Assembly: GCA_964016885.1 (NCBI GenBank)
Contig: OZ024743.1
Location: 202,616,001 to 202,680,000 of the forward strand
Source: Eledone cirrhosa
Lineage: Eukaryota
DNA length: 64,000 bases
Reading direction: 5' to 3'
Shown here: piece after piece, positions 6,147 to 63,842 of the stretch
Position numbering within the stretch: position 1 is the stretch's first letter
How the letters are laid out: each line of letters opens with the position of its first letter
The notes under the pieces: generated by a model
Told to the model about the DNA's origin: nothing
The model's database searches: none
Seen by the model: the letters and a program-made list of their open reading frames with translations, nothing else
Program-made: the position numbers and the translations under genes

Positions 6147-7425
6147 CGATGGTTTATTCAACTGACCTACCTACTCGTTGAATTGGCGCTTATTCGATCG
6201 AGTGTTCTATGGATACATATATACTTAATGTAATACTTGAGCTGAAGCAGTGTGAAATATTTAGTAGTAAGGCAACTTCATAGAGCTCGATTGATCTTTG
6301 TGTTAGGACACGAGTAAATTTTATATATGTTCATCTATATATGAGGTTAATTTACTTTAAATAGAACTTCATTTGTTTTGTCCGTTCGACACATCAATCT
6401 GCCATACATGGTAGTGGTTTAAAAGTAAATGAAATGGAATGCCTGTGGGAAAAAGCCAGATTAATTCCAACGCAGAATTGGAAATCTAGAGTCACTGAGA
6501 GATCGCAAGTAACATGTGCGCACTGCTAAGTTAAATACATTCAGGAAGGGAGAAAAGTCTTATTAGTTTTATGTTACGAAATAACTCCATATAACTTATG
6601 AATTATAATTAAAGGTGAACTCATCTAGAAATGCTCTTATGGATAGAAACAATTATATATTTCAGGTTACTTCCCCTGTTTTAGGCATCTCCATATCACC
6701 AACTAGATTTGTCCTAATCCCGTCCTAATCAACTTGATGTCATTGTGGCATTAACATTTTTTTTTAATGAGATAAAGCCTGTACTATGAAAATACAATAG
6801 TATACATAAACAAACTCATTAACTGCTTAATGAACACATCCACAAGGATATGGTCCGAACGTGGAAGAGCCGAACATCCACTCTCACCGCCGCCCTCAAG
6901 GGAAACGCCTTCTCCATTCTCTCCGCCAGGGCAGTGGGGAGGCCAGCACGTGGGACCCCCTTTGCTCACCATATAGAGAAATTCTCTTATTGTAGCAAAA
7001 CTATAATTTTAATGACAAAAGCCACACCTAAATGAATAACACACGAGAGTGACTCCAAAGATTTACTCTATTCTGTAAACAATCATTTCATACAAAGCTG
7101 CTTACATATACGGAAAACTGCAGCGCCACTCGAAGAAATGGTCCGGATTATAATCATTAGTTATCTCAAAGATTAACAAATACAGACAAACACAAACACA
7201 CATATGTATGTATGGAGGTATGTATGTGTGAACGCCACATTTGTTATTGTTTTACCTGAAACATCTGTAGCAAATTATCTAAGTACAGTATATTTTATAT
7301 ATACAAACACACACACACATATATATATATAGTAATAATAATAAATTTGAAGACTAAAATCCAAAGAGGGCTCGATAAGGATAAATATATATCAAATATA
7401 TAAGAACCGTAGAGCAAATATTGAT

Positions 7426-7751
<326 letters not shown>

Positions 7752-10734: not shown

Positions 10735-12770
10735 CTTTTAATATGTTTTGTAAGATTTCTTATCTTTAATTTGTAGATTAAATGGAGCATTATACCAAGT
10801 AACTCGTCTATTACGGTTTCGATGTTGTTTTCTATATTTATACGATGTATCAGGATGTTTATTATGAGAGTTAGTATTAGTGAATTTATTATATATAGGT
10901 TTAGTTAGATTAACTGATTTAGGTGTTTTAGTCTGATTATTAGGAATTTTGTTAGTAATATTATTAACGTATATTGGAGTATTAAGATGAATGGTTTTTC
11001 GAAAGTTATTATATTTTATGTGAGCAGAGGTAGAGAAATTAAGTTTTAGGTTGGTATTTCGGGGTGTAGTGTGAGTGGCATTTAGGTGTGTGCTTTCCAT
11101 TTGGTGTTTGTTGGTAATATTGGGTTGTATGTTTGAAGTATTATTGGTGCAAGGTATATAGACTAATTTGTTTCTGTGTCCGCTTCGAGCTAAAGCTTCT
11201 TTATAAACATCCTGATACATCGTATAAATATAGAGAACAACATCGACACCGTAATAGACGAGTTACTTGGTATAATGCTCCATTTAATCTACAAATTAAA
11301 GATAATATCCCTAAAATATGTTTACTATCCTAGAGAAACACTTCCCGCCAAACCATAAATACAATCAAATTTTAAATAGATCAACTGTCAAACTTTCCTA
11401 CGCCACTACTAAAAGTATACAACAAAATATAAGTGCGTACAATGCATATAAATGTAAAAAGAAAATCACGAATATACCACCAACACATCAAACCAACCAT
11501 AATACTAAAATAAACCGCAACAAACCACCATCTCCTTCACATATAACAAGTCGGAGTAAATTCCACACCAAATTTGACTAACTCCCCTGATATAATATTC
11601 ACAAATGGTTGTAACTGTAGAAATAAAAGAAAAAAGAAATTGCCCATTAAAGGGAAATTGTCTTATTAATAACATAGTATATAAATGTAAAATTAGACAC
11701 TAAGGACTCAACTTATTCATATATAGGAGCTCTGTCTAACCAATTTAAAGTAAGATTTAATACCTACAAACATAGTTTTTAAAATGCCGCATTAGCTAAT
11801 ACAACATCCTCCTTGGCTGAAATAATTAATAATTATAGAAAAAAGAATATCGATTACAACCTGACCTGGAGTGTGCTCAAAAGGGCCACCCCTTATCAGA
11901 ATAACAGATATGAGTGTAGATTATGCTCGCAGGAAATTTTTGAAATAATGAAATCTAAGGATATCCTCTTAAATAAGCGACAAGAATTAATTATATCTTG
12001 CAATCATAGAATTAGAAGAACTTTCAAATATTATAAACCTAATTAATATACACCTTACACTTATATTTTACATATTATTATAATTAGTTTTTTTTAATTT
12101 AGTTAACCTATACTTAGTACTTTACTACAGAGAACTTCATAATTGTATTTCCCTCTTACTCTTTTCTTAAAATTAATACCTAAAACTATACATATAAATT
12201 AATTTAATTTCCTGTTATGAATCTAGATTCCGTGTTGTCTATATAAGATTGGTATTTCTCACTACTACATTTATCCCACAATTTTAATTTTCTTCGTTTT
12301 TAACAACATTTTTAATAACATCTAACTCTTATTTATCACATCCATATGAATTAATATAAATTTATCCCTATAAGTATGCCTATCAATTAATGTAATTTCT
12401 TGTTATAGATCTAAATCCCTTGTGTTTTAAATAAGATTGGTATTTCTCACTAACACCTTTAGCCTGAAATGTTATTCTCCTTCGGTTTTAACATTAACAT
12501 TATTCTTTAATAACATGAAATTTTCGTGTACCCTTCACCGGTTGACCTCTTTTCATCCCAAAGTATTCTTTTCATTCAAAGTATTCTTTCCATTCAAAAT
12601 TTAAGTCTGCATTCCTCTACCCCTAAATTAAATTTCTACTACTACTATTCTATCAACTTGACTTCTTACTACTTTTCCATTGGTCAATTCAAAACATGTT
12701 CCCAAACAGACCTATTATATTAAATCTTTGTTGTTTTTTTTCAATAAACAAATATCATTATTTCTGAAGA

Positions 12771-13064
12771 GGTTAACTTTGCCTTTCATCATTACGGGGT
12801 CGATAAAATAAAGTACCAGTAATGCACTGGGTAATTGCTGGCCTTGTGCCAAAAGTAGAAACAATTATTTCTTAAGGGCGGTGAATTGGCAGTGCCGGTA
12901 GAGGGTTGGACGTCATGCTTTCTAGCATAGTTACGTCCCTTTATGGTCTGAGTTCAAATCCTCTCGAGGTTAACTTTGCTTTTCATCCTTACGGGGTCGA
13001 TAAAATAAAGTCCCAGTAATCTACTGGGTAATTTCTGGCATTGTGCCAAAAGTAGAAACAATTA
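12771..13064 (+). mobile_element. Partial plus full tandem SINE insertion with 14-bp TSD attatttctgaaga
   Basis: 3' half copy 12771-12867 followed by a full copy 12874-13064; TSD at 12757-12770 and 13061-13074. Confidence 0.85.
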
Positions 13065-15479: not shown

Positions 15480-15668
15480 AGGGCGGTGGATTGGCAGTAT
15501 CGGTAGAGGGTCGGACGCCATGCTTTCCAGCGTAGTTACGTCCCTTTACCATCTGAGTTCAAATCCCGCCGAGGTTGACTTTGCCTTTCATCCTTACGGG
15601 GTCGATAAAATAAAGTACCAGTAATGCACTGGTAATTGCTGGCCTTGTGCCTAAAGTAGAAACAATTA
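15480..15668 (+). mobile_element. Full tRNA-derived SINE with 14-bp TSD attattaaccatct
   Basis: TSD at 15466-15479 and 15665-15678. Confidence 0.9.
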
Positions 15669-16050
15669 TTAACCATCTTGCCAATAAGAACCTAGAGCAC
15701 CTTTTTGAATTCCATGTGTCTAACACCCGTGGGCATGCCTACAAATTCAAAAAAAACAGCACTGCTCCTATGACTTTCGGAAACATTTTTTCCCGCTCAG
15801 GGTTGCTCAAGCATGGAACAAACAACCTGCATCAGTTGTTAACTGTCGAGAAATTACATCCTTTAAAACCTCAATGCTTCCTGAGATTCGCCAACACTGC
15901 ACCTAATGTCTCCGTCCATACACACGTACACATGTATTTCATGACTCGTACATTGTTAATTTTACTCATATTTGAACATTGTTCTATGTACTATACATGC
16001 ACCTTTGATGAGTTGTACTGCACCTGAGCACTGTACGCAATAATTTTATT

Positions 16051-26111: not shown

Positions 26112-26605
26112 ATACTTTGGGAGGGTCATGTTGCCAATAAGAAACACACGCACCAGTTGCTTTCACTTCAATTTAATTTATTAAATATTTATAAGTTTAC
26201 AAATTTATAAATTTATAAATTTCTGGTTGGTTGGTTGGTTCCACAACCAGATAGTTGTTTATATATATATAGTCATAGTTCTTTCGTCACACACTCTGTG
26301 ACCTCTTCAGTGACTGGGGATTTCTTTCTTCGTTTCTGTGCCTTTCCTTTCTTCTATCCTACGCCATTTTGTTTGTGTGTGGGTTGCGTGCTCAGTTTGC
26401 GCATGCGCCACATCCGGGTGTCTGTGTGTGTGTTTGTGTTCATTTTTCTATTTTTCTATTTATATTTTTCTATTTGTTTGTTTATTTATTTATTTATTGT
26501 TGGTTGGTTGTTTGTTCTATGTGTGTGTGTGTTTTCATTTTGTCTTGTGTGTGTTTTCAATTGTAAGTTGTTTGTTCTATGTGTGTGTGTGTTTTCATTT
26601 CGTCC

Positions 26606-27496
26606 TTAATTGTAAGTTGTGATGTTGCTGTTCCACTCATATTTTCTATTTAATTTTGGTTTTAATTCTTTTATGCTTACTGCCTCTGTAATTTGCCTAA
26701 ACATTGCGTCTTTCTTGTGTGTGGATTCTATTTTTATTTCTATGCTCTCTAATTTACCCCTGTGTTCTATCTTAGCATGTTGGTAGAGCACAGATGATTC
26801 TTTACTATTTTGGAGGTCTCGCCAGTGTTCATTTATTCGTTCCCCTATACTACGAGCTGTCTCACCTATGTACACTACATTTTTGTTTCTACATTGTCCT
26901 TCAGTACATCTTATGCTATAAACTACATTTCTAGTTTTACAGTTAATATGGGGGCTTATTTTACAGGTTATGCATTTCTTATCTATACATGAGGGTCTTT
27001 GGAACGGGTATGTCTTGCTAATAAGTGTTTTTACGGAGGTACCAGGTCTTTCTACTATCTTAATATTGAGATTATGTTTCTTTAGGGCCCTTCTAAATTT
27101 GTAGGCTAGTTCGCCTCTAGGGGTTGTATTGATGAACATTACACTCTGGTATTTATTGCTATCATACCATGAGTTTATTCTATTGGCCTTGTTCTTAGTT
27201 CTTTCTATTCTATTCCAAAATTTGCTCCTATACAAGGGGCAGGTCCCATTTATGTCATTATTTACCATTTTTTCCCATTTGGTTCTGGCTCCTTTATACA
27301 CTCTGATTCTATCTCTCTGATTGTAGCCAGAGAACTGCATACGGTGGATGAAGTGTTGTATGTGTCTCTCTAGTTCTTCGGGGTTGCACATGCGGGACAC
27401 ATTTCTCATCACCCGTACCAAATCCGCAATCAGTATGTTGATTTTGGTATGGTCCGAAATGGCCGAGTTTCGGTGGATCAGATGTTTGGAAGTCAT
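26606..27496 (-). CDS. Penelope-like (Neptune-type) RT thumb, linker and GIY-YIG endonuclease, 5'-truncated (left arm)
   Basis: HRNSAISDHTK (thumb), CIDKKCITC Zn motif, NVVYSIRC...YIGETARSIGERINEH, ITEAVSIKELKPKLNRK. Confidence 0.85.
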   Translation of the reverse strand: MTSKHLIHRNSAISDHTKINILIADLVRVMRNVSRMCNPEELERHIQHFIHRMQFSGYNQRDRIRVYKGARTKWEKMVNNDINGTCPLYRSKFWNRIERTKNKANRINSWYDSNKYQSVMFINTTPRGELAYKFRRALKKHNLNIKIVERPGTSVKTLISKTYPFQRPSCIDKKCITCKISPHINCKTRNVVYSIRCTEGQCRNKNVVYIGETARSIGERINEHWRDLQNSKESSVLYQHAKIEHRGKLESIEIKIESTHKKDAMFRQITEAVSIKELKPKLNRKYEWNSNITTYN

Positions 27497-27516
27497 GGGT
27501 TTGTCATGACAAACCC

Positions 27517-28407
27517 ATGACTTCCAAACATCTGATCCACCGAAACTCGGCCATTTCGGACCATACCAAAATCAACATACTGATTGCGGATTTGGTACGG
27601 GTGATGAGAAATGTGTCCCGCATGTGCAACCCCGAAGAACTAGAGAGACACATACAACACTTCATCCACCGTATGCAGTTCTCTGGCTACAATCAGAGAG
27701 ATAGAATCAGAGTGTATAAAGGAGCCAGAACCAAATGGGAAAAAATGGTAAATAATGACATAAATGGGACCTGCCCCTTGTATAGGAGCAAATTTTGGAA
27801 TAGAATAGAAAGAACTAAGAACAAGGCCAATAGAATAAACTCATGGTATGATAGCAATAAATACCAGAGTGTAATGTTCATCAATACAACCCCTAGAGGC
27901 GAACTAGCCTACAAATTTAGAAGGGCCCTAAAGAAACATAATCTCAATATTAAGATAGTAGAAAGACCTGGTACCTCCGTAAAAACACTTATTAGCAAGA
28001 CATACCCGTTCCAAAGACCCTCATGTATAGATAAGAAATGCATAACCTGTAAAATAAGCCCCCATATTAACTGTAAAACTAGAAATGTAGTATATAGCAT
28101 AAGATGTACTGAAGGACAATGTAGAAACAAAAATGTAGTGTACATAGGTGAGACAGCTCGTAGTATAGGGGAACGAATAAATGAACACTGGCGAGACCTC
28201 CAAGATAGTAAAGAATCATCTGTGCTCTACCAACATGCTAAGATAGAACACAGGGGTAAATTAGAGAGCATAGAAATAAAAATAGAATCCACACACAAGA
28301 AAGACGCAATGTTTAGGCAAATTACAGAGGCAGTAAGCATAAAAGAATTAAAACCAAAATTAAATAGAAAATATGAGTGGAACAGCAACATCACAACTTA
28401 CAATTAA
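27517..28407 (+). CDS. Penelope-like (Neptune-type) RT thumb, linker and GIY-YIG endonuclease, 5'-truncated (right arm)
   Basis: Identical to the left-arm protein apart from one N/D difference. Confidence 0.85.
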   Translation: MTSKHLIHRNSAISDHTKINILIADLVRVMRNVSRMCNPEELERHIQHFIHRMQFSGYNQRDRIRVYKGARTKWEKMVNNDINGTCPLYRSKFWNRIERTKNKANRINSWYDSNKYQSVMFINTTPRGELAYKFRRALKKHNLNIKIVERPGTSVKTLISKTYPFQRPSCIDKKCITCKISPHINCKTRNVVYSIRCTEGQCRNKNVVYIGETARSIGERINEHWRDLQDSKESSVLYQHAKIEHRGKLESIEIKIESTHKKDAMFRQITEAVSIKELKPKLNRKYEWNSNITTYN

Positions 28408-29756: not shown

Positions 29757-29924
29757 ACTCTCTCTCTCTCTCTCCCCCTCTCTCTCTCTCTCTCTCTTTA
29801 TATATTTGATATATATTTATCCTTATCGAGCCTCGTTAAATAAATACGTTTGTTTATATTTTGTTATTGTGTATGCAAACAATCTGAACACAAATATATA
29901 ATTATATATATATATATATATATT

Positions 29925-30260
29925 AAAGTAACAGATTAAAGTGTAAGCAAAGAATCGCTGCTTTCAACATTAACGGGATCTTCTGAAACTAAAAAATTTA
30001 ATCTGTGAACACAGAAATAAATATTTCGTGAAACTTTGCAACCGAAGGAAAACAGGAAGACGATATTCTGGTTCGTGAAGACGTTTCCTGGTAATGAACG
30101 GAAAAAAAGAAAATATAATACGTCGTTATGTGGACCGAGAAGAACAATTTCATGCAAAGACAAGACCAAGTTTATGGTATAAATGGAGTCGTTAGACTAA
30201 TATTCTATTTAAAATAACCGAATGATTTCCAGCCCCGGAGTTTAAGAATGATGTAAATAA
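29925..30260 (-). mobile_element. Solo pLTR fragment, family C (CAGAAGA motif at 29934-30003)
   Basis: Colinear homology with 55840-56200. Confidence 0.75.
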
Positions 30261-30354
30261 AATTGAAAACGAAAATGACAGAGGTTATTAAAATAGTAAA
30301 AGTAAATAGTGAAGAATTAGGCCAGTACATACGTATGCCCCGACGGACATACGC

Positions 30355-30843
30355 ATACATACGCACACACAAATACATACACACCCACAAACACACACAC
30401 ACGCGCGCGCTGTATAAACCTTATGCATTTCTACAGCATTTTCACCAAACTTAAGACATAGGTTACTTATGTACTCCGGATGGTCATGGGCACTTTCATT
30501 TTTCCAGATATTTATTATAGGGCCTCCCGGCAGAAAACCCCCTTTATCCACTTTCTTGGAGTCGACTGAAGCACTGCAATGCATTGCAACAAAACGTCAT
30601 AACTTCTGGAGTTCCCAACCGATTTTCACAAAACTTGACACATGGGCTACGTTTGTCCTACAGATGAATGTGGACTCTCAGAATTGGCACATATTGAGTA
30701 GGGGAACCATGGGATCAGGAACCCCCTTTTGGAAAAAGCCGATGATTTTGTAAAAATATAGTTTTCGAAGAAGCACTGAAGTATTGACATAAATGTTATA
30801 CACAACTGCTATTTAATACCCGAGCAACGCCGGGTACCTCTGG

Positions 30844-30845
<2 letters not shown>
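30355..30845 (+). mobile_element. Non-autonomous Helitron/HINE-like element
   Basis: accgattttcacaaaacttg core; 3' hairpin cccgagcaacgccggg followed by CTGG. The same end occurs at 41572-41599 (CTAG) and inverted at 32746-32773. Confidence 0.55.
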
Positions 30846-30928
<83 letters not shown>

Positions 30929-31787: not shown

Positions 31788-32130
31788 TAGCGTCTAAAAA
31801 TAACGTTTTTTCAGCCCTATACCTCAACCTCATTTGCATACTCATCTTAATAATTTGAAATATCTGACTTTTCTTCTCTTTTACTTAACTATCCAAGAAA
31901 AAATTGAACTGCTACGATATCTTTTCTTGGTTACGTCAACATTTATAAAACAAACTTTGTATTTTATCTGATGAGGGCGTACCAAAATTTTGGTACCCTT
32001 GAAATAGAATAAATATAGTTTTATGAAGATAGTTTCCATTTATTTAAAATCATCGAATATTATACTCCAGAAAACCTGTCAAGTCCTCTGAATCAGTTAA
32101 ATATATTTTTTAGATGTAGATTGATAATCT
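31787..32130 (+). mobile_element. Non-coding pLTR fragment with HHR (CTGATGA 31968-74, GAAA 32001-04; stem III partly deleted)
   Basis: Direct repeat of 37272-37549; its 3' part is homologous to the end of the 43043 pLTR. Confidence 0.75.
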
Positions 32131-36917: not shown

Positions 36918-37108
36918 TAATTGTTTCTACTTTAGGCACAAGGCCAGCAATTACCCAGTGCATTACTGGTACTTTATTTTATCGACACCGTAAGGATGAA
37001 AGGCAAAGTCAACCTTGGCGGCATTTGAACTCAAATCGTAAAGGGACGTAACTATGCTGGAAAGCATGGCGTCCGACTCTCTACCGATACAGCCAATTCA
37101 CCACCCTT
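36918..37108 (-). mobile_element. tRNA-derived SINE, same family
   Basis: Reverse complement of the consensus. Confidence 0.85.
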
Positions 37109-37443: not shown

Positions 37444-37505
37444 GTATTTTATCTGACGATGGCATACCAATGTTTTGGTACCCTTGAAATATATATAATA
37501 GAAGA
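37444..37505 (+). ncRNA. Type I minimal hammerhead (family A) in a solo pLTR 37272-37549
   Basis: ttttat-CTGACGA-tggcatacca..tggtaccctt-GAAA-tatata-TA-atagaa. Confidence 0.65.
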
Positions 37506-39989: not shown

Positions 39990-42073
39990 TAATATATATA
40001 ATATATATGTGTGTGAGTGTTTGTTTGCATGCATGTATGAGTGTATAAGTGTGAGCGTGTGTGTTTGTAGAATTGTGCGTATATACATTTTCTGTTTTGT
40101 TTAAACTAGCCGATATAGAGTGTGCTATCTTGGTTGAAGTTTGAAATCTTAGAGAGCATGCACGTTTTGAGATCATATTCATATATATTTTCGCTCTGTA
40201 CATGACATAAACCGTTTTCCCCCTTGATCTATGTATATGTATATGCATATATATATGGGAGTATATATATATATATATTTGAAAAATATATATATATACT
40301 AGCACTATAGACTGCAAAGCGACCGTCGCCAGCAACAACAACAAGTCCAAGAAACAAAATGAAAATAAAAACAGCAACAGCAGCAATGGTAAGAGTGACG
40401 ACAGCAGCAAAAACAACAACGGCTGCAGAACCAGCATCAGCAACAACGTGCACAAAAACAACACCACGGCCAACAGCATCAACAACAACACTACATATGC
40501 AGCCACAACTGCAAAATCGCAAGAATATTTAAATCTCGACATATCGGGCAAAGAAGCACGTTTGGTCCAAGCAACCCAACTAATGCACAAGGAGTTGTCG
40601 AGACATACATGACCATACAAGGCAAGCTATCTCTCGTTATCCCTTCGCAAGGAGTGTTTAATATGTATCAGCTTATGTTTTAACTTCTGCCAGACAAAGC
40701 TATTCGTTTTGTGTTCCGTGCCGGGGATGTGTAGCAATCTTCTGAAGCTCTTCTGTACGATTTGGTGGGTTCTCCGTTCTATGTCAGCTGCGGGTGTGCA
40801 ACTAATATATATATATATAGTGGTAGAACACTGGAAGGTAATATCCGTAGTGGTAGAGCACTCAGTCCATGGGACGAGTTAGGTAGAAGTGGTTACACAA
40901 CAGTTTGTTCACCATACCGCGACCAATTGTTTCACCTTAGCGGATCCTCAGCTCGTAATGGACAGGGTTATACAATTAAACAAACACACACACATCTACA
41001 CATACAGATATATATGTGATGACACTCAGCTGTGCGTGAATGTGTCTGTGTGTGTCACTCTTAGTATATGTATGTGAGTTTATGTGAGAGTGTATGCGTG
41101 TGTGAATGTATTCGTGATAATTTCTGTCTTAACGTTAGGCGTCAGAGAATTAAACACACACACATATATAGTGTTAGTAAGTTGCATACACATGATCTTC
41201 ACACACAGCCAATTAAACACACACACACATCTACACATACAGATACATATGTGTTGACAGACAGGTGTGCGTGAAGGTATGTCTGCGTGTGACTATCTTA
41301 GTACATGTATGTGAGTGTATGTGAGTGTGTGTGAGTGTATGTGAAAGTGTATGTGAGTGCGCAGCAATTTATTCAACAAAAAATGACACAATGAATATTT
41401 TTTTTATCGTAAGGTGCTTCAAGTTTGACAGATTTTCATTTCTAAATTCTATTATCATTACAATTTTGATATTTTTTTTTTTACAAAATATAGATATTTT
41501 GAAATAATTATGAGAAAAAAATATATATTTCCATATTTATTGTTTACTAATCTGAATAAGAACAGCAGTAACCAGGGCATCGCCGGGTAATTCAGCTAGT
41601 TCTTTATATATGTCGATACATTAAACTTGCCACTGATTTGATTTATTATTGTTCACATAAAAAAGGTAGAGTATCGAAAGGTACATTAAAGCACCGGAGA
41701 AGATTCTTTGCGGAATTGATTTACATACTTTTACTGTCAGATTTTTATTCTGCCGACATCAACTTTGCCTTTCACCATTCCGGTGTCGTTAAAATTAAGT
41801 AACAATTAAGATCTGGGTTCGTATAATCGACTTTTTCCTTTAAATTTCTGTCTGTTTCCACAGAAAGTAGCAGGGAGGCAATGTCTCGATGAGAGCCATT
41901 GGGTTGAAATGTGCATAGAAATGCTTCTGCTGGAATCCGCTAGACGGCGCTGGCCCCCAGCCTTTATTCATAGCTGCAAACACATATATACAAACACACA
42001 TATATACAAACATGTATTTAATGTAAAATGAATTTGAAAGGTCCATTTATATGTGTGTGTATATGTATGCGTG

Positions 42074-42890
<817 letters not shown>

Positions 42891-43186: not shown

Positions 43187-43252
43187 TATTTCATTATATA
43201 TATTTCAGGGATATCATATTAACAATATGCTATGCCTTCCTCAGACAAAATA
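43187..43252 (-). ncRNA. Type I minimal hammerhead in the 3' pLTR (family A)
   Basis: tattttgt-CTGAGGA-aggcatagcatatt gtt aatatgatatccct-GAAA-tatata-TA-atgaaata. Confidence 0.8.
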
Positions 43253-44581: not shown

Positions 44582-46795
44582 CTACATTTTAAATTTAAAT
44601 TTATATTTAAACGCTGAGTTTAATCTATGTTTGCAGCAACTGAATACATTTGTCCGTAGATTAAGGGAATTTTTAGATTTTAGTATAAAGAATATCTCCT
44701 CTGCGCAGAGGTCACATGTCTCAGAGGATGAATTAAAAGGAATCCGTCTTGAGACTATATTCCAAGCCGTCGAATATCTAACGTTATCTAGCTTAAGTTG
44801 CCAGAGTACGCCTGATAGTGCCGTTGAAGATTTTTTGCTTGGATCTGTGAAAGAATTCTTGTGGTTATTATAGCGAAGTTTAAATTCCGTCGATGTGGAA
44901 CCGACGTAGTTAAAAGAATTAGAGTCAGTATTAACATTACAATTGTATACTATATTTTTAACTAAGCAGTTGTTATTTAACGGACATTTAGATCTATCTC
45001 TACAGTTACATTTGTTAACTTGTATATTATGTATGCTATTATCACTAGGTTTTAAGTTCCTATTATTTATTCTATTAATATTTTGTGCTAAATTTTTGGT
45101 GGATGAGTAGGTTAATTTTATTGTATGTCTATTGAAAATTGAGTGATACCTATGTGTTCTAGGGAAGCGATTATCAAGACCTTTAAAAAATATTTTAGCG
45201 ATGTGGGTTCTAATGTTTAGTGAGAAAGGGGGGGCAAACCAAATTATGTTCCTAGTTCTATTTCTTTTTTGGCCTTTGGAATTATTGTAATGCTTTCTAT
45301 TATAGTTGTTAAGGTTGTTGCCGTAATTAAAATAGTTGTTATTTTGTTTAGTTTGTCTATCATTATCTATGTACACAATCTTATCAGCATATCCTGCTCT
45401 AGCTAATGCTTCATTGTAGTATTGGGCTTTTTCGTCGAAAATCTTTCTATTCGACGAAATCCTAGAGATACGTTTTTGAACAGAGTTTACTATAGTGTTT
45501 TTGACAGATCTGGGGTGGTTAGAGTTAAAGTTGACATAGTTTAAGTTTTCATTCAACTTGTGAAAAGGATAGTGAAGACATGTGTTGAGATTTAATGTTA
45601 TATCTAGGAAATTGACTATTCTATGGTTGTTCTCAATTTCTATTTTAAGATTAAAGTAATTAAAAAATTGTGTAATTTGTTTACATTTTCTATTTAGTTC
45701 AGAGTTATTATTATCAATAAGTAAAAGCATGTCATCTCTATATAAACCTCCGGTAGTACCAGGTATTTTCCTATGTAGCGAATTGATTAAAAATAAGCCC
45801 ACAAGGTCAGTTACCTGAGCTGAGTCGGATGATCCCATAGTAATGTCAAAATTGCTATCTCTATCTGCTCTGGTCCATAGTTGGTCATTAAATTCTATCA
45901 AAGTTTTCCTAGCCGATAATATAATATGCATTTCATTGCTAGTTAGGTCAGTATGTTTGAATGCGTAATTTAGTGCCTTATTTAGTAGATTAGGGGTAAT
46001 AGAAGAATAATAGTTAGCTATATCAAGTTGAATAAACTTATTATTATTGTTATATTTAATTTGCTTAAACCACTCAACAACCTCTCCAGTTCCCTTCCAC
46101 AAGCTCAGGTTAGATAAACAATCCAAGTTCTTAATTTGCTGTATCACCCTGTCAAGAATGTTCTTGCTTAATTTGCCCAGGTCCGATTTTGATGGTGCGA
46201 TCAATCTAACTGGCAAGTCATTTTCAAAATACCTCTTGTGATCTTTCATATTGATCTTCGGTTTCCTGGGCACGAAAGGTTGTGTTCTGTTCTCAATTTC
46301 CAACTCGTGCATTATACAAGATGCTTCGACATTCATTTTCTCAAGCTCGGCCTTATCTGCTACCTTGTACTTTTTCCTCAGCTCCTTCTGTATGAGGCCA
46401 TTATACATGTCTTTCTGCACTCCATAGAGGTTGTTGGTCTTGTCAGATTTCACCAAGATCTTCTCAGTTTTCTCTAAGCTCTCAATGTTATCCTTAATGC
46501 CTTTCAGATATTCCTGGCCTTTGAAGTTTCTCTTGAATTTGACCCCTTGTATGATGGAAATTATATCGTTTTCAAAGTCAGATAAAAGTTTGTTAGGGGG
46601 TGGATTTCTTTTAGATTTGAAAACTTTGTTTAAGTCCGAGACATTTTCATTTATATTAGATTTATCAAAGTGGAATGCTCGCCACCTGATTCTCCTTATA
46701 AAAGAGTCAGATTTATCTATTAATTGTTTTATAAAGTCTTTGTTTCTAGGTAGAGGTATGTCTTTTAAAGAGGAAGTAATCTTAAAGAATTCCAT
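44582..46795 (-). CDS. PLE reverse transcriptase plus C-terminal GIY-YIG endonuclease, 737 aa, apparently intact
   Basis: KSDKT, QLDIANYYSSI, ITMGSSDS, GLYRDD, FLDITL, SNHP, WFAPPF, CNCRDRSKCPLNNNC, IVYNC..YVG..FKLRYNNH, CDLCAEE. Confidence 0.95.
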   Translation of the reverse strand: MEFFKITSSLKDIPLPRNKDFIKQLIDKSDSFIRRIRWRAFHFDKSNINENVSDLNKVFKSKRNPPPNKLLSDFENDIISIIQGVKFKRNFKGQEYLKGIKDNIESLEKTEKILVKSDKTNNLYGVQKDMYNGLIQKELRKKYKVADKAELEKMNVEASCIMHELEIENRTQPFVPRKPKINMKDHKRYFENDLPVRLIAPSKSDLGKLSKNILDRVIQQIKNLDCLSNLSLWKGTGEVVEWFKQIKYNNNNKFIQLDIANYYSSITPNLLNKALNYAFKHTDLTSNEMHIILSARKTLIEFNDQLWTRADRDSNFDITMGSSDSAQVTDLVGLFLINSLHRKIPGTTGGLYRDDMLLLIDNNNSELNRKCKQITQFFNYFNLKIEIENNHRIVNFLDITLNLNTCLHYPFHKLNENLNYVNFNSNHPRSVKNTIVNSVQKRISRISSNRKIFDEKAQYYNEALARAGYADKIVYIDNDRQTKQNNNYFNYGNNLNNYNRKHYNNSKGQKRNRTRNIIWFAPPFSLNIRTHIAKIFFKGLDNRFPRTHRYHSIFNRHTIKLTYSSTKNLAQNINRINNRNLKPSDNSIHNIQVNKCNCRDRSKCPLNNNCLVKNIVYNCNVNTDSNSFNYVGSTSTEFKLRYNNHKNSFTDPSKKSSTALSGVLWQLKLDNVRYSTAWNIVSRRIPFNSSSETCDLCAEEIFFILKSKNSLNLRTNVFSCCKHRLNSAFKYKFKFKM

Positions 46796-46973
46796 TTTTC
46801 CAGTTATAATATAAAGCGCTCAACAGTATTGGAGCAAGATACATGGAAAGTTATATTTAAATTGTTGGGTTACAACTAGTAAATATTTATAACTGATATA
46901 AAAGCACTCGACAAGTATTTGGAGTATATTTACAATATTAAATAAATGGAAACTATATTTATAAAACCATATT

Positions 46974-48540: not shown

Positions 48541-49170
48541 GTGTGTTTTGCAATGGGTCACTTTGTTGCTCAATGAAGAGATAATAAATTAAATAATCAG
48601 AGCTATATATCATAAAACGTGTCTATAGAATCACCAGATAAAATATATACCATTTCCTCTCCCAACTAGCATAATTAACCATATAAAAATCGATTAGACC
48701 AAGCTATAAGAATAGAGGTTTCTATGAAGAAATCTCCGACAAATAACCAAAAGCAGCCCTTCGCGCCGGCTGCGACGAGGCATTTATCCAGTATTTCGAC
48801 AGCGTGTACAAATCGCCCAGATATACAGTCAACAAGCAGAGTCAGGTGTAAAATAAACTAGGAGAAAAGTGAACATATTTAGTTACCTCTACCATGGTTT
48901 CGTCCGCATTTTAAGATATCCGATAACATCGGGCATCCAGAGCACCGGACTCTTCAGGAAGTTAACTCAAACTTAGACAATGAATTTTCCAAAGTGATCG
49001 CGCCAAGTATACATTAAAAAATGGGTAAGAATCGTGACGTAGCAGTGGTCAGGTTAGAAAGAATATGATTGGTTGCTTACGGCTGGTGGCATTTTACTAG
49101 AAAGCGCTACACAATGCAGCCAAAATTGCACCTCAACCTAAGGGAGATGATTACATCTGAACGTTTGCAT

Positions 49171-49561: not shown

Positions 49562-49626
49562 TATTCCATTTACCAGTGGTTTCTTAAAAGCCAAAAAATT
49601 TGCTTTCAATCATCAGAATGAAAATA
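49562..49626 (-). ncRNA. Type I hammerhead (family E)
   Basis: catt-CTGATGA-ttgaaagc..gcttttaa-GAAA-ccactgG-TA-aatg. Confidence 0.8.
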
Positions 49627-51009: not shown

Positions 51010-52380
51010 TTCCTTCTTCACACCCCCAAAGAGAAATTTCCTTCCCATAATATCGGTTTATAACGTGATGACGGATTGGCAGTCTCTCATACCACCAACG
51101 GCCATAACCTTGATAAATTCCATAAAGATGTAATCAATACTTTTGCTAATCTTAACCTTAAAATCACTATAGATACGAACCTTTCCAATGCCAACTTTCT
51201 TGATGTTAATCTTGATCTACTTACCGCCTCTTTTAAACCTTATCATAAACCTAATGAAAATCTTAGGTATATACACAAAGAGTCTTGCCAACCCCCTATA
51301 GTTTTTAATAATCTTATTCCTAACATTAGCCGTAGGATTTCTACCTTATCTTCGTCTATAGACATTTTTAATAAAGCCACCCCTTATTATAATAAAGCCC
51401 TTAAGAACAGCGGTTTTACAGAATTTTTTTTTATTTATCTACCCCCCCCCCCCTAAAACTAACCACTATATCAGGAAAAGGAAAATTATTTGGTTCACAC
51501 CCCCCTTCTCTCTAACTGTCAAAAATAATGTAGGAAGGACATTCCTTGAACTCTTAGACAAACATTTTCCTCCTAATCATAGATATTGTAAGATATTTAA
51601 TAGGAACGTAGTTAAGATCAGTTACTCTTGTTGCCCATCTATGAAGTCTAAGATCACTAGTTCAAATCATACGAGAACAAATCCAGGATGCAGTTGCAGG
51701 AAGCCGGATGAATTCCCATTGCAGGGTAAATGTAACACCAAATCTGTTGTTTATGAGGCTAAAATAACACCGGTAATCAACAACCAGCCAGCCAGGAGTG
51801 AGCGATATGTCGGTATGACCGAGGACAGGTTTAAAACCAGAGTTTACACACATGTCGCTTCTTTTAAGCACTCCGATAAACGAACATCAACGGCCCTCGC
51901 AAGTAAGGTGTGGGAATTCAAGGATAGTAACATCACGTACTCTATCGATTGGTCTATCTTAGACCATTCGAGGGAGTACCAAAGGGGCACAAGAATTGTT
52001 CTTTGTGTACCACTGAAAAATATAGGATTTTGCTAAACTTGAGAGCCACTTATGCTTGCCTAAACTCAAAGACCGACATCTTCAGATGTTGTCCTCATCT
52101 GAAATCACAGCTGATCTGTAACTGGATTTATACTCCTATGATAAATCAACCGCCTTGAACTCCTTCTCTGCTCTTTACTTCTACTACGGTTTTTTTATTT
52201 TTTTATTTACTGAATCCACGTTCTGTACCCTTGTATTCTTTTTCTCCCTTATCTCCCCTTATATTTCACCTTTTCCTATGTCTTTCCCCGCCCCATATAT
52301 TCTTTTTGCCTTACCCTTCACATGCCAAAATGTATGTGCATGTATGTGTATGTGTATATATATATATATATGTATATATA

Positions 52381-53663: not shown

Positions 53664-53729
53664 ATTATCATTCTGATGATTGAAAGCAACATTTTTTGCT
53701 TTTAAGAAACCACTGGTAAATGGAATAAT
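53664..53729 (+). ncRNA. Type I hammerhead, canonical core (family E)
   Basis: attatcatt-CTGATGA-ttgaaagcaa..ttgcttttaa-GAAA-ccactgG-TA-aatggaataat; GUA site at 53718. Confidence 0.85.
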
Positions 53730-55795: not shown

Positions 55796-55839
<44 letters not shown>

Positions 55840-56052
55840 TAAAATAACAGATTAAAGTTTAAGCAAAGAATCGCTGCTTTCACCCTTCACGGGATCTTCT
55901 GAAACTAACAAAGTCAATCTGTAAACGCAGAACTGGATATTTCAAAAAACGTTGCAACTGGAGGAAGACAGGAAGACGATACTTTGGTTCGTGGAAACGT
56001 TCGCTGGCAAAGAACGGGAAAAAACGAATAATACGTCATTAATAGGAGCGGT

Positions 56053-56119
56053 CGATAAAATAAAGTACCAGTAATGCACTGGGTAATTGCTGGCCTTGTG
56101 CCTAAAGTAGAAACAATTA
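56053..56119 (+). mobile_element. SINE 3' fragment with 15-bp TSD attaataggagcggt
   Basis: TSD at 56038-56052 and 56116-56130. Confidence 0.85.
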
Positions 56120-56890
56120 ATAGGAGCGGTGAAAAACAATTACGCGCAAAGACAGAACCACGTTTATGGTATAAAAGAGGTCGTAGACTAATGTTCTCTT
56201 AGGTGGTGCATAGAGAAGTTCTCTGGCAATGAACGAAAAAACGAAGATAATAAGTCATATGTGGAGCGAGGAGAACAATAGCACGCAAAGACAAAACCAC
56301 GTAAATGGTATAGCAGAAGTTGTAGACTAAAATTCTAACTAGGAGACCAAATGAATCTCCGCTACAGGGTTAAGAACAAAGTAAATAAATACAATACAGA
56401 AGTAATAGAAACAAATAAATACATACACGCAAACAGATACGTACATACACAAGCATCAGCAAAACCTTACCATAGGTATACAAAACCACGCACATATAAA
56501 TATGTGTGTGTGTGTATACTTGTGTACAAATAAATAAATAATTATATAAACGTATATAAGTAAATAAATACGTATATAACAAGCGCACACACATACCTAC
56601 AAATAAATACACGAATGTTCGGAGACGTACACATATACACACACCCACCATACGTACGAGCCTGCATACTCACGCAGACGCACAACTCCCGTATGCACAT
56701 AGCCAAACCCTAAATGCCAGAATATGTAAAAATTATACGCCATAACAGTCAAATATACATACGAGAAGGTATACATACCTTCACAAAACATACGGTAATA
56801 TATACTTACCTATGCAAATAAGTAAAGGAATGAACAAAACATATACTTAGCTCCCACATCAAGACGTAAAATATCCACGTATAGATCGTG

Positions 56891-58601
56891 CTATCCGTTA
56901 GGGTATAACGTGGGGCTGTAGTACAGGAAAGTTTTGTGCAATTTATGTTTACAAGCCGAAATTGCCTCAAACTTTTTGTTTAAGATGTGGTCTGTGGCGT
57001 AGAGTATTTCCAGGGCCTCAGCGGCGCAGAGGTCACATGGTCTTTTATTTCCGTTATACGATCTAGCCCTAGCTAGGATCTCCCAGTGTAACTTATATTG
57101 GGTGTGGTTGTCTTTTAGACTCCAGATATAAGCTGAAAGTGACGTCATATTCCTTTCTAAAGGGTAACGAAAAGAATGGGTATGCATGTAAAGACGCTGC
57201 TTGAAACTATTTGCGGTTAACCCTATGTAGGCCCTACGGGACATGTGTGTTACAACCTTACATTTGTAGACAATGTTACTAGAGAGGCATTTCCCGGATA
57301 GGGGGTAATCAGCCCGATTCCTACAATTACAGTTAGTACTAACTACAGGGTTGCACGTGTTCCTACGGCTAGGTAGTTTAGCTAAATTTGAAGCTGTGAT
57401 GTTATGTGCAAGGTTAGGAGTCGTAGAGTAAGACATTTTAATAGTATTTCTATTAAAAATTTTACTATATTTATGTGTAGGGGGAAAATACTTCGTAATA
57501 AGGGAAAGAAAGATCTTAGCTAATGGTGTGGCCACCTCCATATTATATGCTGGGTTAAACCAACAAATGCGACGGGATCTATTTCTTCTAGGTCTATTTT
57601 CGTACTCTGTATATGCTACCCTATCGACAAATCCACTTCGAGCAAGAGTTTCATTGTAATAAGTGGAATGGTCGTTGAAAATGCGCTCGTTGGTGGAAAG
57701 ACGGGAAAGTCTCAACGAAACGTTTTTTACCAGGTTCTTGGTTATGCTGGCAGGAAGTTTGGAATGCTTACTTATGTAATTAAGCGTATCATTCGGCTTT
57801 CTATACGGGTAATACAACCCATTCAATAAATTGAGGGTAACGTCGAGGTAATTAACGACCGAGAGATTGGCCTCAACCTGTATAGAGAGGTTGAAGCCTT
57901 TAAAGAAGGCTGTGAGTTCTTTTCTGAACATGTCGCAAGCACGAGATCCGCACTTAGTCATGGTCAAAAGACCATCGTCACGGTATAAACCACCGCCCGC
58001 GTTGGGGAATTCGTCCTTGATAGAGAAAAGAAGGAAAAGGCCAATAAGATCAGTAACCTCCGCAGAGTCACCGGCGCCCATACTCATGTCGAATGGGGTA
58101 CTATTGGATTTTTTAATCCAAATAGAGTAGTCGAAATTAATCACCGACTTTCGGGCATTAAGGATGACATCAACTTCGAAATCCTTAACCACTGTGAGTG
58201 TTTTAGCGAAATTGATAGTTCTAAGGAGAAGTGGTAAAGTGATGGAGGAGTAGTAATTGTTGATGTCGAATTGGATAAAACGGCAATGTTCCTTGTTACA
58301 TATGCCGTTGAACCAATCAATCACCGCGAAAGAATTGTTCCACAGTGCGAGAGGGGCCAAACTTCTAATTTCAGGTATAATTCTATCAAGAATCGTTTTA
58401 CTAAGTCTACCTAAATCGGACTTGGTAGGGTTAATAAGCCGAATAGAGGGGTTGTTCGGAACATTGGATTTGTGATCCTTCAGGGTAAAGTGGGGAGAGA
58501 TAGGGTCCAGAGGTTCGGTCCGGTCCAGGATGTTGAGATCAGATGTGATTTTAAACCCAGCATCGTTGATTTCATTGATGACACACCGATTAGTTTTACG
58601 G
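56891..58601 (-). CDS. PLE RT plus GIY-YIG, open but N-terminally truncated (first 9 aa of the 578-aa track ORF are microsatellite)
   Basis: TLKDHK, RLINPTKSDLGRLSK, QFDINNYYSSI, GLYRDDG, WFNP, CNCRNRADYPLSGKC, IVYKC..YIG, CDLCAAE. Confidence 0.9.
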
Positions 58602-63538: not shown

Positions 63539-63842
63539 AAAATATAAGTATTAATAACATATATGTTCTTTTGATCAATTACATTTTATTATACATATTT
63601 CGGATGTACAACAGTACGTCCTCATCAGACAAAATACAATGATACATGACATACCCTGAGATGTTAAATGGTTAAGATTTAATCAAGGTAGTAGACTACA
63701 TTGATTAAATCTTAACCATTTAACATCTCAGGGTATGTTATGTATCATTATATTTTGTCTGATGAGGACGTACTGTTGTACATCCGAAATATGTATAATA
63801 AAATTTAATTGATCAAAAGAACATCTAGTTTATTAATACTTA

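Follow-up and report, generated by a model that had tools for sequence, protein, structure and literature searches.

An A4 core variant of a hammerhead motif, fixed genome-wide in a Hydra-type Penelope-like retrotransposon of Eledone cirrhosa

A variant hammerhead and its host element

The window analysed here is a 64,000-nt stretch of the Eledone cirrhosa genome (GCA_964016885.1, contig OZ024743.1, forward-strand positions 202,616,001 to 202,680,000). Inspection of the sequence places a type I hammerhead fold on the minus strand at 55847..55922, with three helices around the core and with stems II and III closed by loops. The fold consists of: a distal stem I of 9 bp, a 7-nt 5' bulge and a proximal stem I of 5 bp; a stem II of 3 bp with a 5-nt loop, followed by GAAA; and a stem III of 4 bp with G15.2-C16.2 and a 9-nt loop. 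When hammerhead numbering is applied to the sequence, the predicted scissile bond follows U17 of a CUU triplet (55861/55860). G12, A13, A14 and A15.1 occupy 55881-55878 (G12 at 55881), with U16.1 at 55862 and U17 at 55861, as expected of a hammerhead. The core segment C3-A9 (55895..55901) departs from the canonical C3 U4 G5 A6 N7 G8 A9 at one position: adenosine replaces U4 at 55900, next to C3 at 55901, and the other six positions are canonical. The 10.1/11.1 pair, canonically purine-pyrimidine, is U·U (55894 and 55882).

A three-stem descriptor that leaves position 4 free returned 54 matches when applied to evenly spaced genome stretches totalling 700 kb, against 0 in the reversed control, so hammerhead motifs of this kind are not chance occurrences. 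A covariance model built only from 15 other, metagenomic, Hydra-type hammerheads, whose stems covary, detects three of the four A4 copies in the window at 18.7-19.2 bits (rough E 0.005-0.007) and misses the copy at 29.9 kb. Copies of this family with a natural U4 reach 26.2 bits against 19.2 for A4, so that A4 costs 7 bits. The initial annotation had described four A4 motifs with three-stem geometry and a bulged distal stem I; all four are present with full folds. Rfam searches at both thresholds match neither the A4 copy nor a natural U4 copy, which indicates that Rfam does not cover this type of hammerhead. ViennaRNA does not rank the hammerhead fold of the focal copy first (-12.3 against a minimum of -15.1 kcal/mol; z -0.57), and it also misfolds the canonical-U4 control family, returning no hammerhead fold. 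An antisense or permuted hammerhead was rejected, as a window-wide core scan found no opposite-strand core at these places.

The surrounding sequence identifies the focal motif as the pLTR hammerhead of a Penelope-like element (PLE) of the Hydra type that is both young and very abundant. A full copy is about 3.2 kb long and runs in the order: pLTR with hammerhead; an ORF encoding a 709-aa RT-GIY-YIG protein; a 0.9-kb 3' UTR; hammerhead; and (TA)n. The hammerhead is sense-oriented in both pLTRs, and its predicted site lies 158 nt before the ATG. Assignment to the Hydra clade, as PMC8557442 defines it, rests on protein motifs. Full copies encode RWR, SDKTG, GLYRDDG, CNCRNRADC, VY..YIG, CDLC and CKH, which supply the C-terminal GIY-YIG, the RWK-like and DKT motifs, the CxCx5C linker, and the CxxC and CxH near the C-terminus. 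The pLTRs, inverted 5'-truncated arms, optional tail and insertion at (TA)n also correspond to that clade. The canonical pLTR hammerhead is the trait that departs, its position and fold being present but with A4. As the motif carries the traits of a PLE pLTR hammerhead but not the strict core, it is classed here as a variant, short of a proven ribozyme.

Exact 20-mer matches number 37,333 in the 3.0-Gb genome, with the arms of inverted insertions counted separately. Of the 77 best ORF matches, 19 keep a stop-free 713-codon frame and are about 95% identical to the copy in the window. By these sequence measures the family is young and abundant. A Pfam search with three proteins gave nothing relevant. 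Domain order, motifs and organisation rule out a Naiad or Neptune/Nematis identity, and a non-LTR retrozyme was likewise rejected: the copies are scattered and belong to the 3' ends of a coding element, not to non-coding tandem hammerhead units. No closer sister family emerged when the genome was searched with the closest protein in the database (57% identical): the matches were 53-57% identical and had the frame lengths of the A4 family.

The copy in the window carries a 5'-truncated RT and GIY-YIG ORF (56891..58600, minus strand), corresponding to residues 141-709, with (TA)n at its upstream end. Residues 1-140 are missing, and with them RWR and DKT; in the CxCx5C linker a C>Y change removes the third Cys. 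The frame is open, as had been pointed out for the RT-EN ORF, but truncation and the linker change leave the argument from it weaker than stated. The 3' UTR and pLTR body (55923..56890, minus strand) contains donor-like AG/GTAAGT near 56810 and G/GTAAGG near 56470, and is interrupted at 56050..56119 (minus strand) by about 70 nt of an inserted, abundant repeat of unrelated sequence, next to which lies a short duplication. Fragments of this very abundant repeat also lie at 36918-36986, 12798-12867, 15600-15671 and elsewhere in the window. The element ends at 55832..55846 (minus strand), about 29 nt past the predicted site and followed by the (TA)n target; this is the major 3' end of the family.

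The other A4 motifs in the window, each with the 9-bp distal stem I, are found at 7433-7508 (minus), 7547-7622 (plus) and 29931-30006 (minus). The first two are the arms of one short inverted insertion of the same family. Its inverted arm (7330..7508, minus) includes a tail to the +117 end, and its forward arm (7516..7637, plus) ends at +29 in (TA)n. The four motifs thus represent only three insertions, which weakens the argument from copy number within the window. The third motif belongs to a composite non-autonomous repeat that ends in the PLE 3' end (29920..30846, minus). The extra stem mismatches previously noted there are real, and they are a fixed trait of the composite: A4 is kept, and stem II is broken at 23 of 30 loci (one other variant, six not scored). 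This abundant repeat comprises about 600 nt of unrelated 5' sequence, a GT microsatellite and the PLE 3' end; its start is presumably HINE/Helentron-like. Some versions carry the broken-stem hammerhead, and sister composites have none at all.

Position 4 across the genome and the origin of A4

When ten upstream bases are held fixed, position 4 reads A in 11,660 of 11,750 copies genome-wide, T in 32, C in 28 and G in 30 (C and G counted from the list of matches). T is no more frequent than the C or G errors. Twenty T4 loci that were fetched are spread over several subfamily backgrounds, which marks them as scattered mutations. Hammerheads beside the best ORF matches read CAG in 28/28 and 29/29 cases, and of 88 copies chosen through an anchor that lies outside the motif, 83 read CAG and none CTG. 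A4 is therefore fixed in this family, at more than 99% of matched-context copies. The proposal of a lineage-fixed state, as opposed to random decay, holds for A4 in these matched-context copies and in all ORF-adjacent copies counted; the consensus check suggested with it gives a dominant A, and CUGAAGA is not the state of most copies. Contigs from four sequencing runs showed no variant at 55900 above a 10% threshold; three of these runs are of very low depth, perhaps trace DNA, and are not used as cross-species evidence.

A looser pattern, lacking the upstream context, returns 22,677 A against 735 T. As a measure of U4 the 735 CUGAAGA matches are misleading: all 12 that were sampled are fold-back junctions at the palindromic TTC-A-GAA, centred on A4 and lacking the 5' strand of stem I. 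Hundreds of such perfect fold-back insertions recreate a CUGA core in one arm and form a trap for consensus counts. They possibly reflect a stall or switch point of the RT at the junction of stem I and core.

Comparison with related hammerheads points to a derived origin. Among 77 related metagenome loci, the 41 with a hammerhead match divide into 39 CUG, 2 CCG and 0 CAG. File S2 of PMC8557442 gives CUGA in all 25 Hydra families and A4 in none. Within the 700-kb genome sample, the 54 matches comprise 44 CUG, 2 CCG and 8 CAG; the A4 family accounts for seven of the eight, and the eighth comes from a canonical family and has decayed. With A4 in 0/41 metagenome and 0/25 published Hydra hammerheads, these sequences indicate that A4 is derived and is this family's own change. 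Among the papers returned by the literature searches, neither a natural A4 hammerhead nor this PLE family was found.

The U·U pair has a different status. It closes stem II in 18 of the 41 metagenome hammerheads and occurs in 14 of the 25 Hydra families of File S2, and it is present in other hammerhead families of the same genome. PMC3088659 describes U·U at 10.1/11.1 as a known, tolerated natural variant and the best-tolerated mispair there. On this sequence evidence U·U is a habit of the Hydra clade and no novelty of the lineage. The core variant advanced by the initial annotation as a lineage novelty thus stands for A4 and falls for U·U: it is a real, genome-wide, derived core variant in a thriving retrotransposon, and the U·U half of the claim is ordinary.

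Cleavage, retention of the fold and rival readings

If the motif cuts, it likely does so poorly. A4 would remove the uridine of the U-turn, and it is predicted to be able to pair with U11.1, lengthening an alternative helix over G12-A15.1. The predicted probability of the C3:G12 off-pair is 0.40 with A4 versus 0.02 in natural U4 copies at 37 C, and 0.27 versus 0.01 at 20 C; this off-helix prediction is soft, since ViennaRNA misfolds the canonical control too. In comprehensive mutagenesis of one hammerhead, single and double mutants of the CUGA turn had low activity except for a C3-G8 swap (PMC9901934). Against attenuation, no further core residue is altered, a loop closes stem III, and stem I has the length and bulge of monomer-competent ribozymes. 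Two precedents also bear on the question: a U4C variant found naturally in a viroid has weak activity in vitro and suffices in vivo (cited in PMC3088659), and a PLE ribozyme of Anolis cuts only in the presence of its own protein (PMC11167929). Taken together, the evidence leans to strong attenuation, and A4 likely leaves self-cleavage strongly reduced or lost.

Genomic 5' ends were also considered. Among the matches listed, and counted by eye, starts no more than 4 nt upstream of the site make up about 1/100 in the A4 family and about 5/100 in the canonical control. None of 19 ORF-bearing insertions that keep an upstream hammerhead remnant starts at the site (by eye; duplicates and a locus masked with Ns are not counted), while 12 more start downstream of the motif. 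The canonical-U4 family of the same architecture has its site read through in about 95/100 copies among the matches listed. Because the canonical family reads through its site too, genomic 5' ends do not discriminate cutting from non-cutting.

The 3' ends form two main clusters, 29 and about 117 nt downstream of the site. Among 228 aligned copies (of 229), 134 have their end between +20 and +33 and 69 between +106 and +125, and only 4/228 end at the predicted site or within 2 nt of it. With priming beyond the site, any copy in which the core survives would have been reverse-transcribed across an uncut or re-joined bond; loss of cleavage would then cost little and may even help. The family expanded while carrying A4. 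We favour, at a probability of roughly one half, the reading that cleavage is attenuated or lost and that stems and core are retained as a 3'-terminal cis-element for reverse transcription. In such a pathway, the 709-aa RT-EN protein would bind a read-through RNA that derives from a tandem copy, the (TA)n target would be nicked, and cDNA would start at either of two sites downstream of the hammerhead. Cleavage would have become dispensable or damped, and the fold would persist as part of the 3'-terminal RNA signal. PMC11167929 reports that catalytic mutants of the Anolis hammerhead have no effect on insertion in vitro. As a point against the cis-element reading, it locates the required RNA in the first 172 nt of the ORF, and the hammerhead fold per se is not implicated there.

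Retention of the fold was assessed across five subfamily consensuses (116, 46, 27, 17 and 13 copies). Compared with the youngest, the most diverged has changes at 23 of 294 upstream sites and at none of the 69 hammerhead sites outside the bulge (P=0.011). Only two motif changes separate the consensuses, both in the unpaired bulge. With the bulge included, the comparison becomes 2/76 motif sites (P=0.13); exclusion of the bulge was chosen after inspection of the data. These sequences provide moderate evidence of constraint on stems and core, and conservation of this kind does not separate catalysis from recognition by protein.

The alternative that survives best, itself unlikely, is that A4 is tolerated in a slow but used ribozyme, rescued by a tertiary contact between loop II and stem I or by the PLE protein; slow cutting would permit RT read-through while part of the RNA is still processed. 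The remaining core is intact and invariant over the five consensuses, the independent Hydra model fits except for the 7 bits charged to A4, and stem III carries a compensatory G15.2-C16.2 where the model sequences have C-G in 15/15. The U4C viroid variant, the tolerated U·U and the protein-assisted Anolis ribozyme are precedents for such a motif. Against it stand the predicted A4-U11.1 off-helix and the occurrence of A4 in no related family examined. The CUU site also counts against it, as CUU is a weak cleavage triplet. The mutagenesis data add that the low activity of single mutants in the CUGA turn was not relieved by a second mutation, the C3-G8 swap apart (PMC9901934). Should this doubtful possibility hold, the family would contain the first natural hammerhead that cuts with A4, compensated by the stem I-loop II contact or by the RT-endonuclease; it would be a tuned, protein-gated ribozyme within a retrotransposon that ranks among the most successful of this genome.

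It is improbable that the motif is a neutral hitch-hiker, left by a master copy that lost the ribozyme by chance, needed neither cut nor fold, and has not yet decayed. The composite repeat spread with its broken stem II (23/30 loci) and has sister composites without a hammerhead, Naiad PLEs thrive without canonical ones (PMC8557442), and the conservation is non-significant once the bulge is included. Set against this, no stem, core or loop site changed as compared to about 8% of the upstream UTR, with both motif changes confined to the unpaired bulge, and the composite may use a different mobility mechanism. Least probable is fixation of A4 as part of a CAG 3' splice acceptor (C3-A4-G5), through which removal of a pLTR intron would strip the 5' half of the ribozyme from the translated mRNA and leave unspliced RNA as template: the local sequence (a preceding pyrimidine run and branch-point-like motif), a perfect donor-like AG/GTAAGT ~80 nt after the stop codon, and a D. 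virilis Penelope intron ending at helix I of its hammerhead (PMC4209133) and a pLTR intron common to Penelope and Chlamys (PMC8557442) favour it, but three other YAG sites no more than 35 nt upstream make A4 unnecessary as an acceptor, the donor-acceptor junction occurs in 0/255 genomic copies (though PLE copies usually retain introns), and YAG is not enriched beside the core (12/40 in related hammerheads vs 8-9/40 in their control windows).

The preferred reading, attenuated or lost cleavage with a retained fold, bears on what the hammerhead does in PLEs, nearly all of which carry one. It has been proposed to process precursors, to be a passenger, or to give the RT an RNA handle. The young A4 family multiplied to tens of thousands of copies once a near-invariant base of the catalytic pocket had changed and with the remaining fold kept, which makes it a natural test of whether PLEs need the hammerhead to cut at all. 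If the A4 motif is dead, cleavage would be dispensable in vivo and the fold would serve some other function; a motif that cuts would mean that the core consensus, and descriptors based on it, are too strict. Searches based on CUGA would rate this family hammerhead-free. As controls, the same genome offers natural U4 copies and a canonical family of the same architecture.

Known systems and neighbouring motifs

The element shares with the Hydra-clade PLEs of Craig et al. 2021 (PMC8557442) the C-terminal GIY-YIG, the RWR, DKT and CxCx5C motifs, (TA)n targets and a sense type I pLTR hammerhead. The published families, with CUGA throughout, near-always have a short near-palindromic stem III starting GAAAC and a GUH site; the present element instead combines A4 and G15.2-C16.2 with a loop III of 9 nt, a CUU site and a stem I that is long and bulged. 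Poseidon of Anolis carolinensis (Frangieh et al. 2024, PMC11167929) likewise places its hammerhead at the pLTR-ORF junction and inserts at an AT-rich target, and its two RT start sites downstream of the hammerhead, with an optional tail, parallel the two 3' ends of the A4 family; its cleavage is dispensable for insertion in vitro. Poseidon differs in its canonical core, in its demonstrated protein-assisted cutting and in a hammerhead that overlaps the start codon, whereas the A4 family has a core altered in the wild and a predicted site well upstream of the ATG.

Rare core departures are described among natural hammerheads (Perreault et al. 2011, PMC3088659), including U3-A8 in Schistosoma PLEs (PMC4209133). 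A at position 4 is absent among the variants in the sections of these two papers drawn on, and those variants are mostly rare cases as compared to the genome-wide fixed state here. Naiad and Chlamys PLEs are likewise high-copy and have spread without a canonical hammerhead; they differ in their N-terminal endonuclease and in having no recognisable fold, whereas a nearly complete fold persists in the A4 family.

Further PLE pieces lie in the window. A second Hydra-type ORF at 44582-46819 (minus) has a 745-codon frame and is 41-42% identical to the A4 family; no hammerhead directly follows its stop, and the core closest to it lies at 43229 and looks like that of another family. Hydra-type ORF fragments occur at 10738-11262 (minus) and 51362-52036 (plus). 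A near-perfect inverted duplication at 26606-28407 contains the 3' part of another PLE-like ORF; each of its arms bears a minimal hammerhead of canonical type, near 26310 (minus) and 28703 (plus).

Nine further hammerhead-like motifs, at 53665-53726 (plus), 49563-49624 (minus), 48882-48965 (minus), 42362-42446 (minus), 31960-32016 (plus), 37445-37505 (plus), 63751-63805 (plus), 63585-63636 (minus) and 40914-40959 (minus), represent several families, and the core is canonical CUGA in most of them (seven of the nine were inspected); Rfam at the gathering threshold finds none of the nine. Across the 700-kb genome sample there are roughly a dozen hammerhead families and about 77 motifs per Mb. Elsewhere in the genome, retrozyme-like tandem arrays of ~310-nt units carry a minimal CUGA hammerhead in each unit. 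A second abundant family, with 10,283 exact matches, carries a hammerhead with the canonical CUGA core whose architecture matches that of the A4 motif (U·U, closed stem III, 8-nt loop). Its stem I covaries among subfamilies, and many of its copies are truncated at the 5' edge of stem I, where CAG also occurs.
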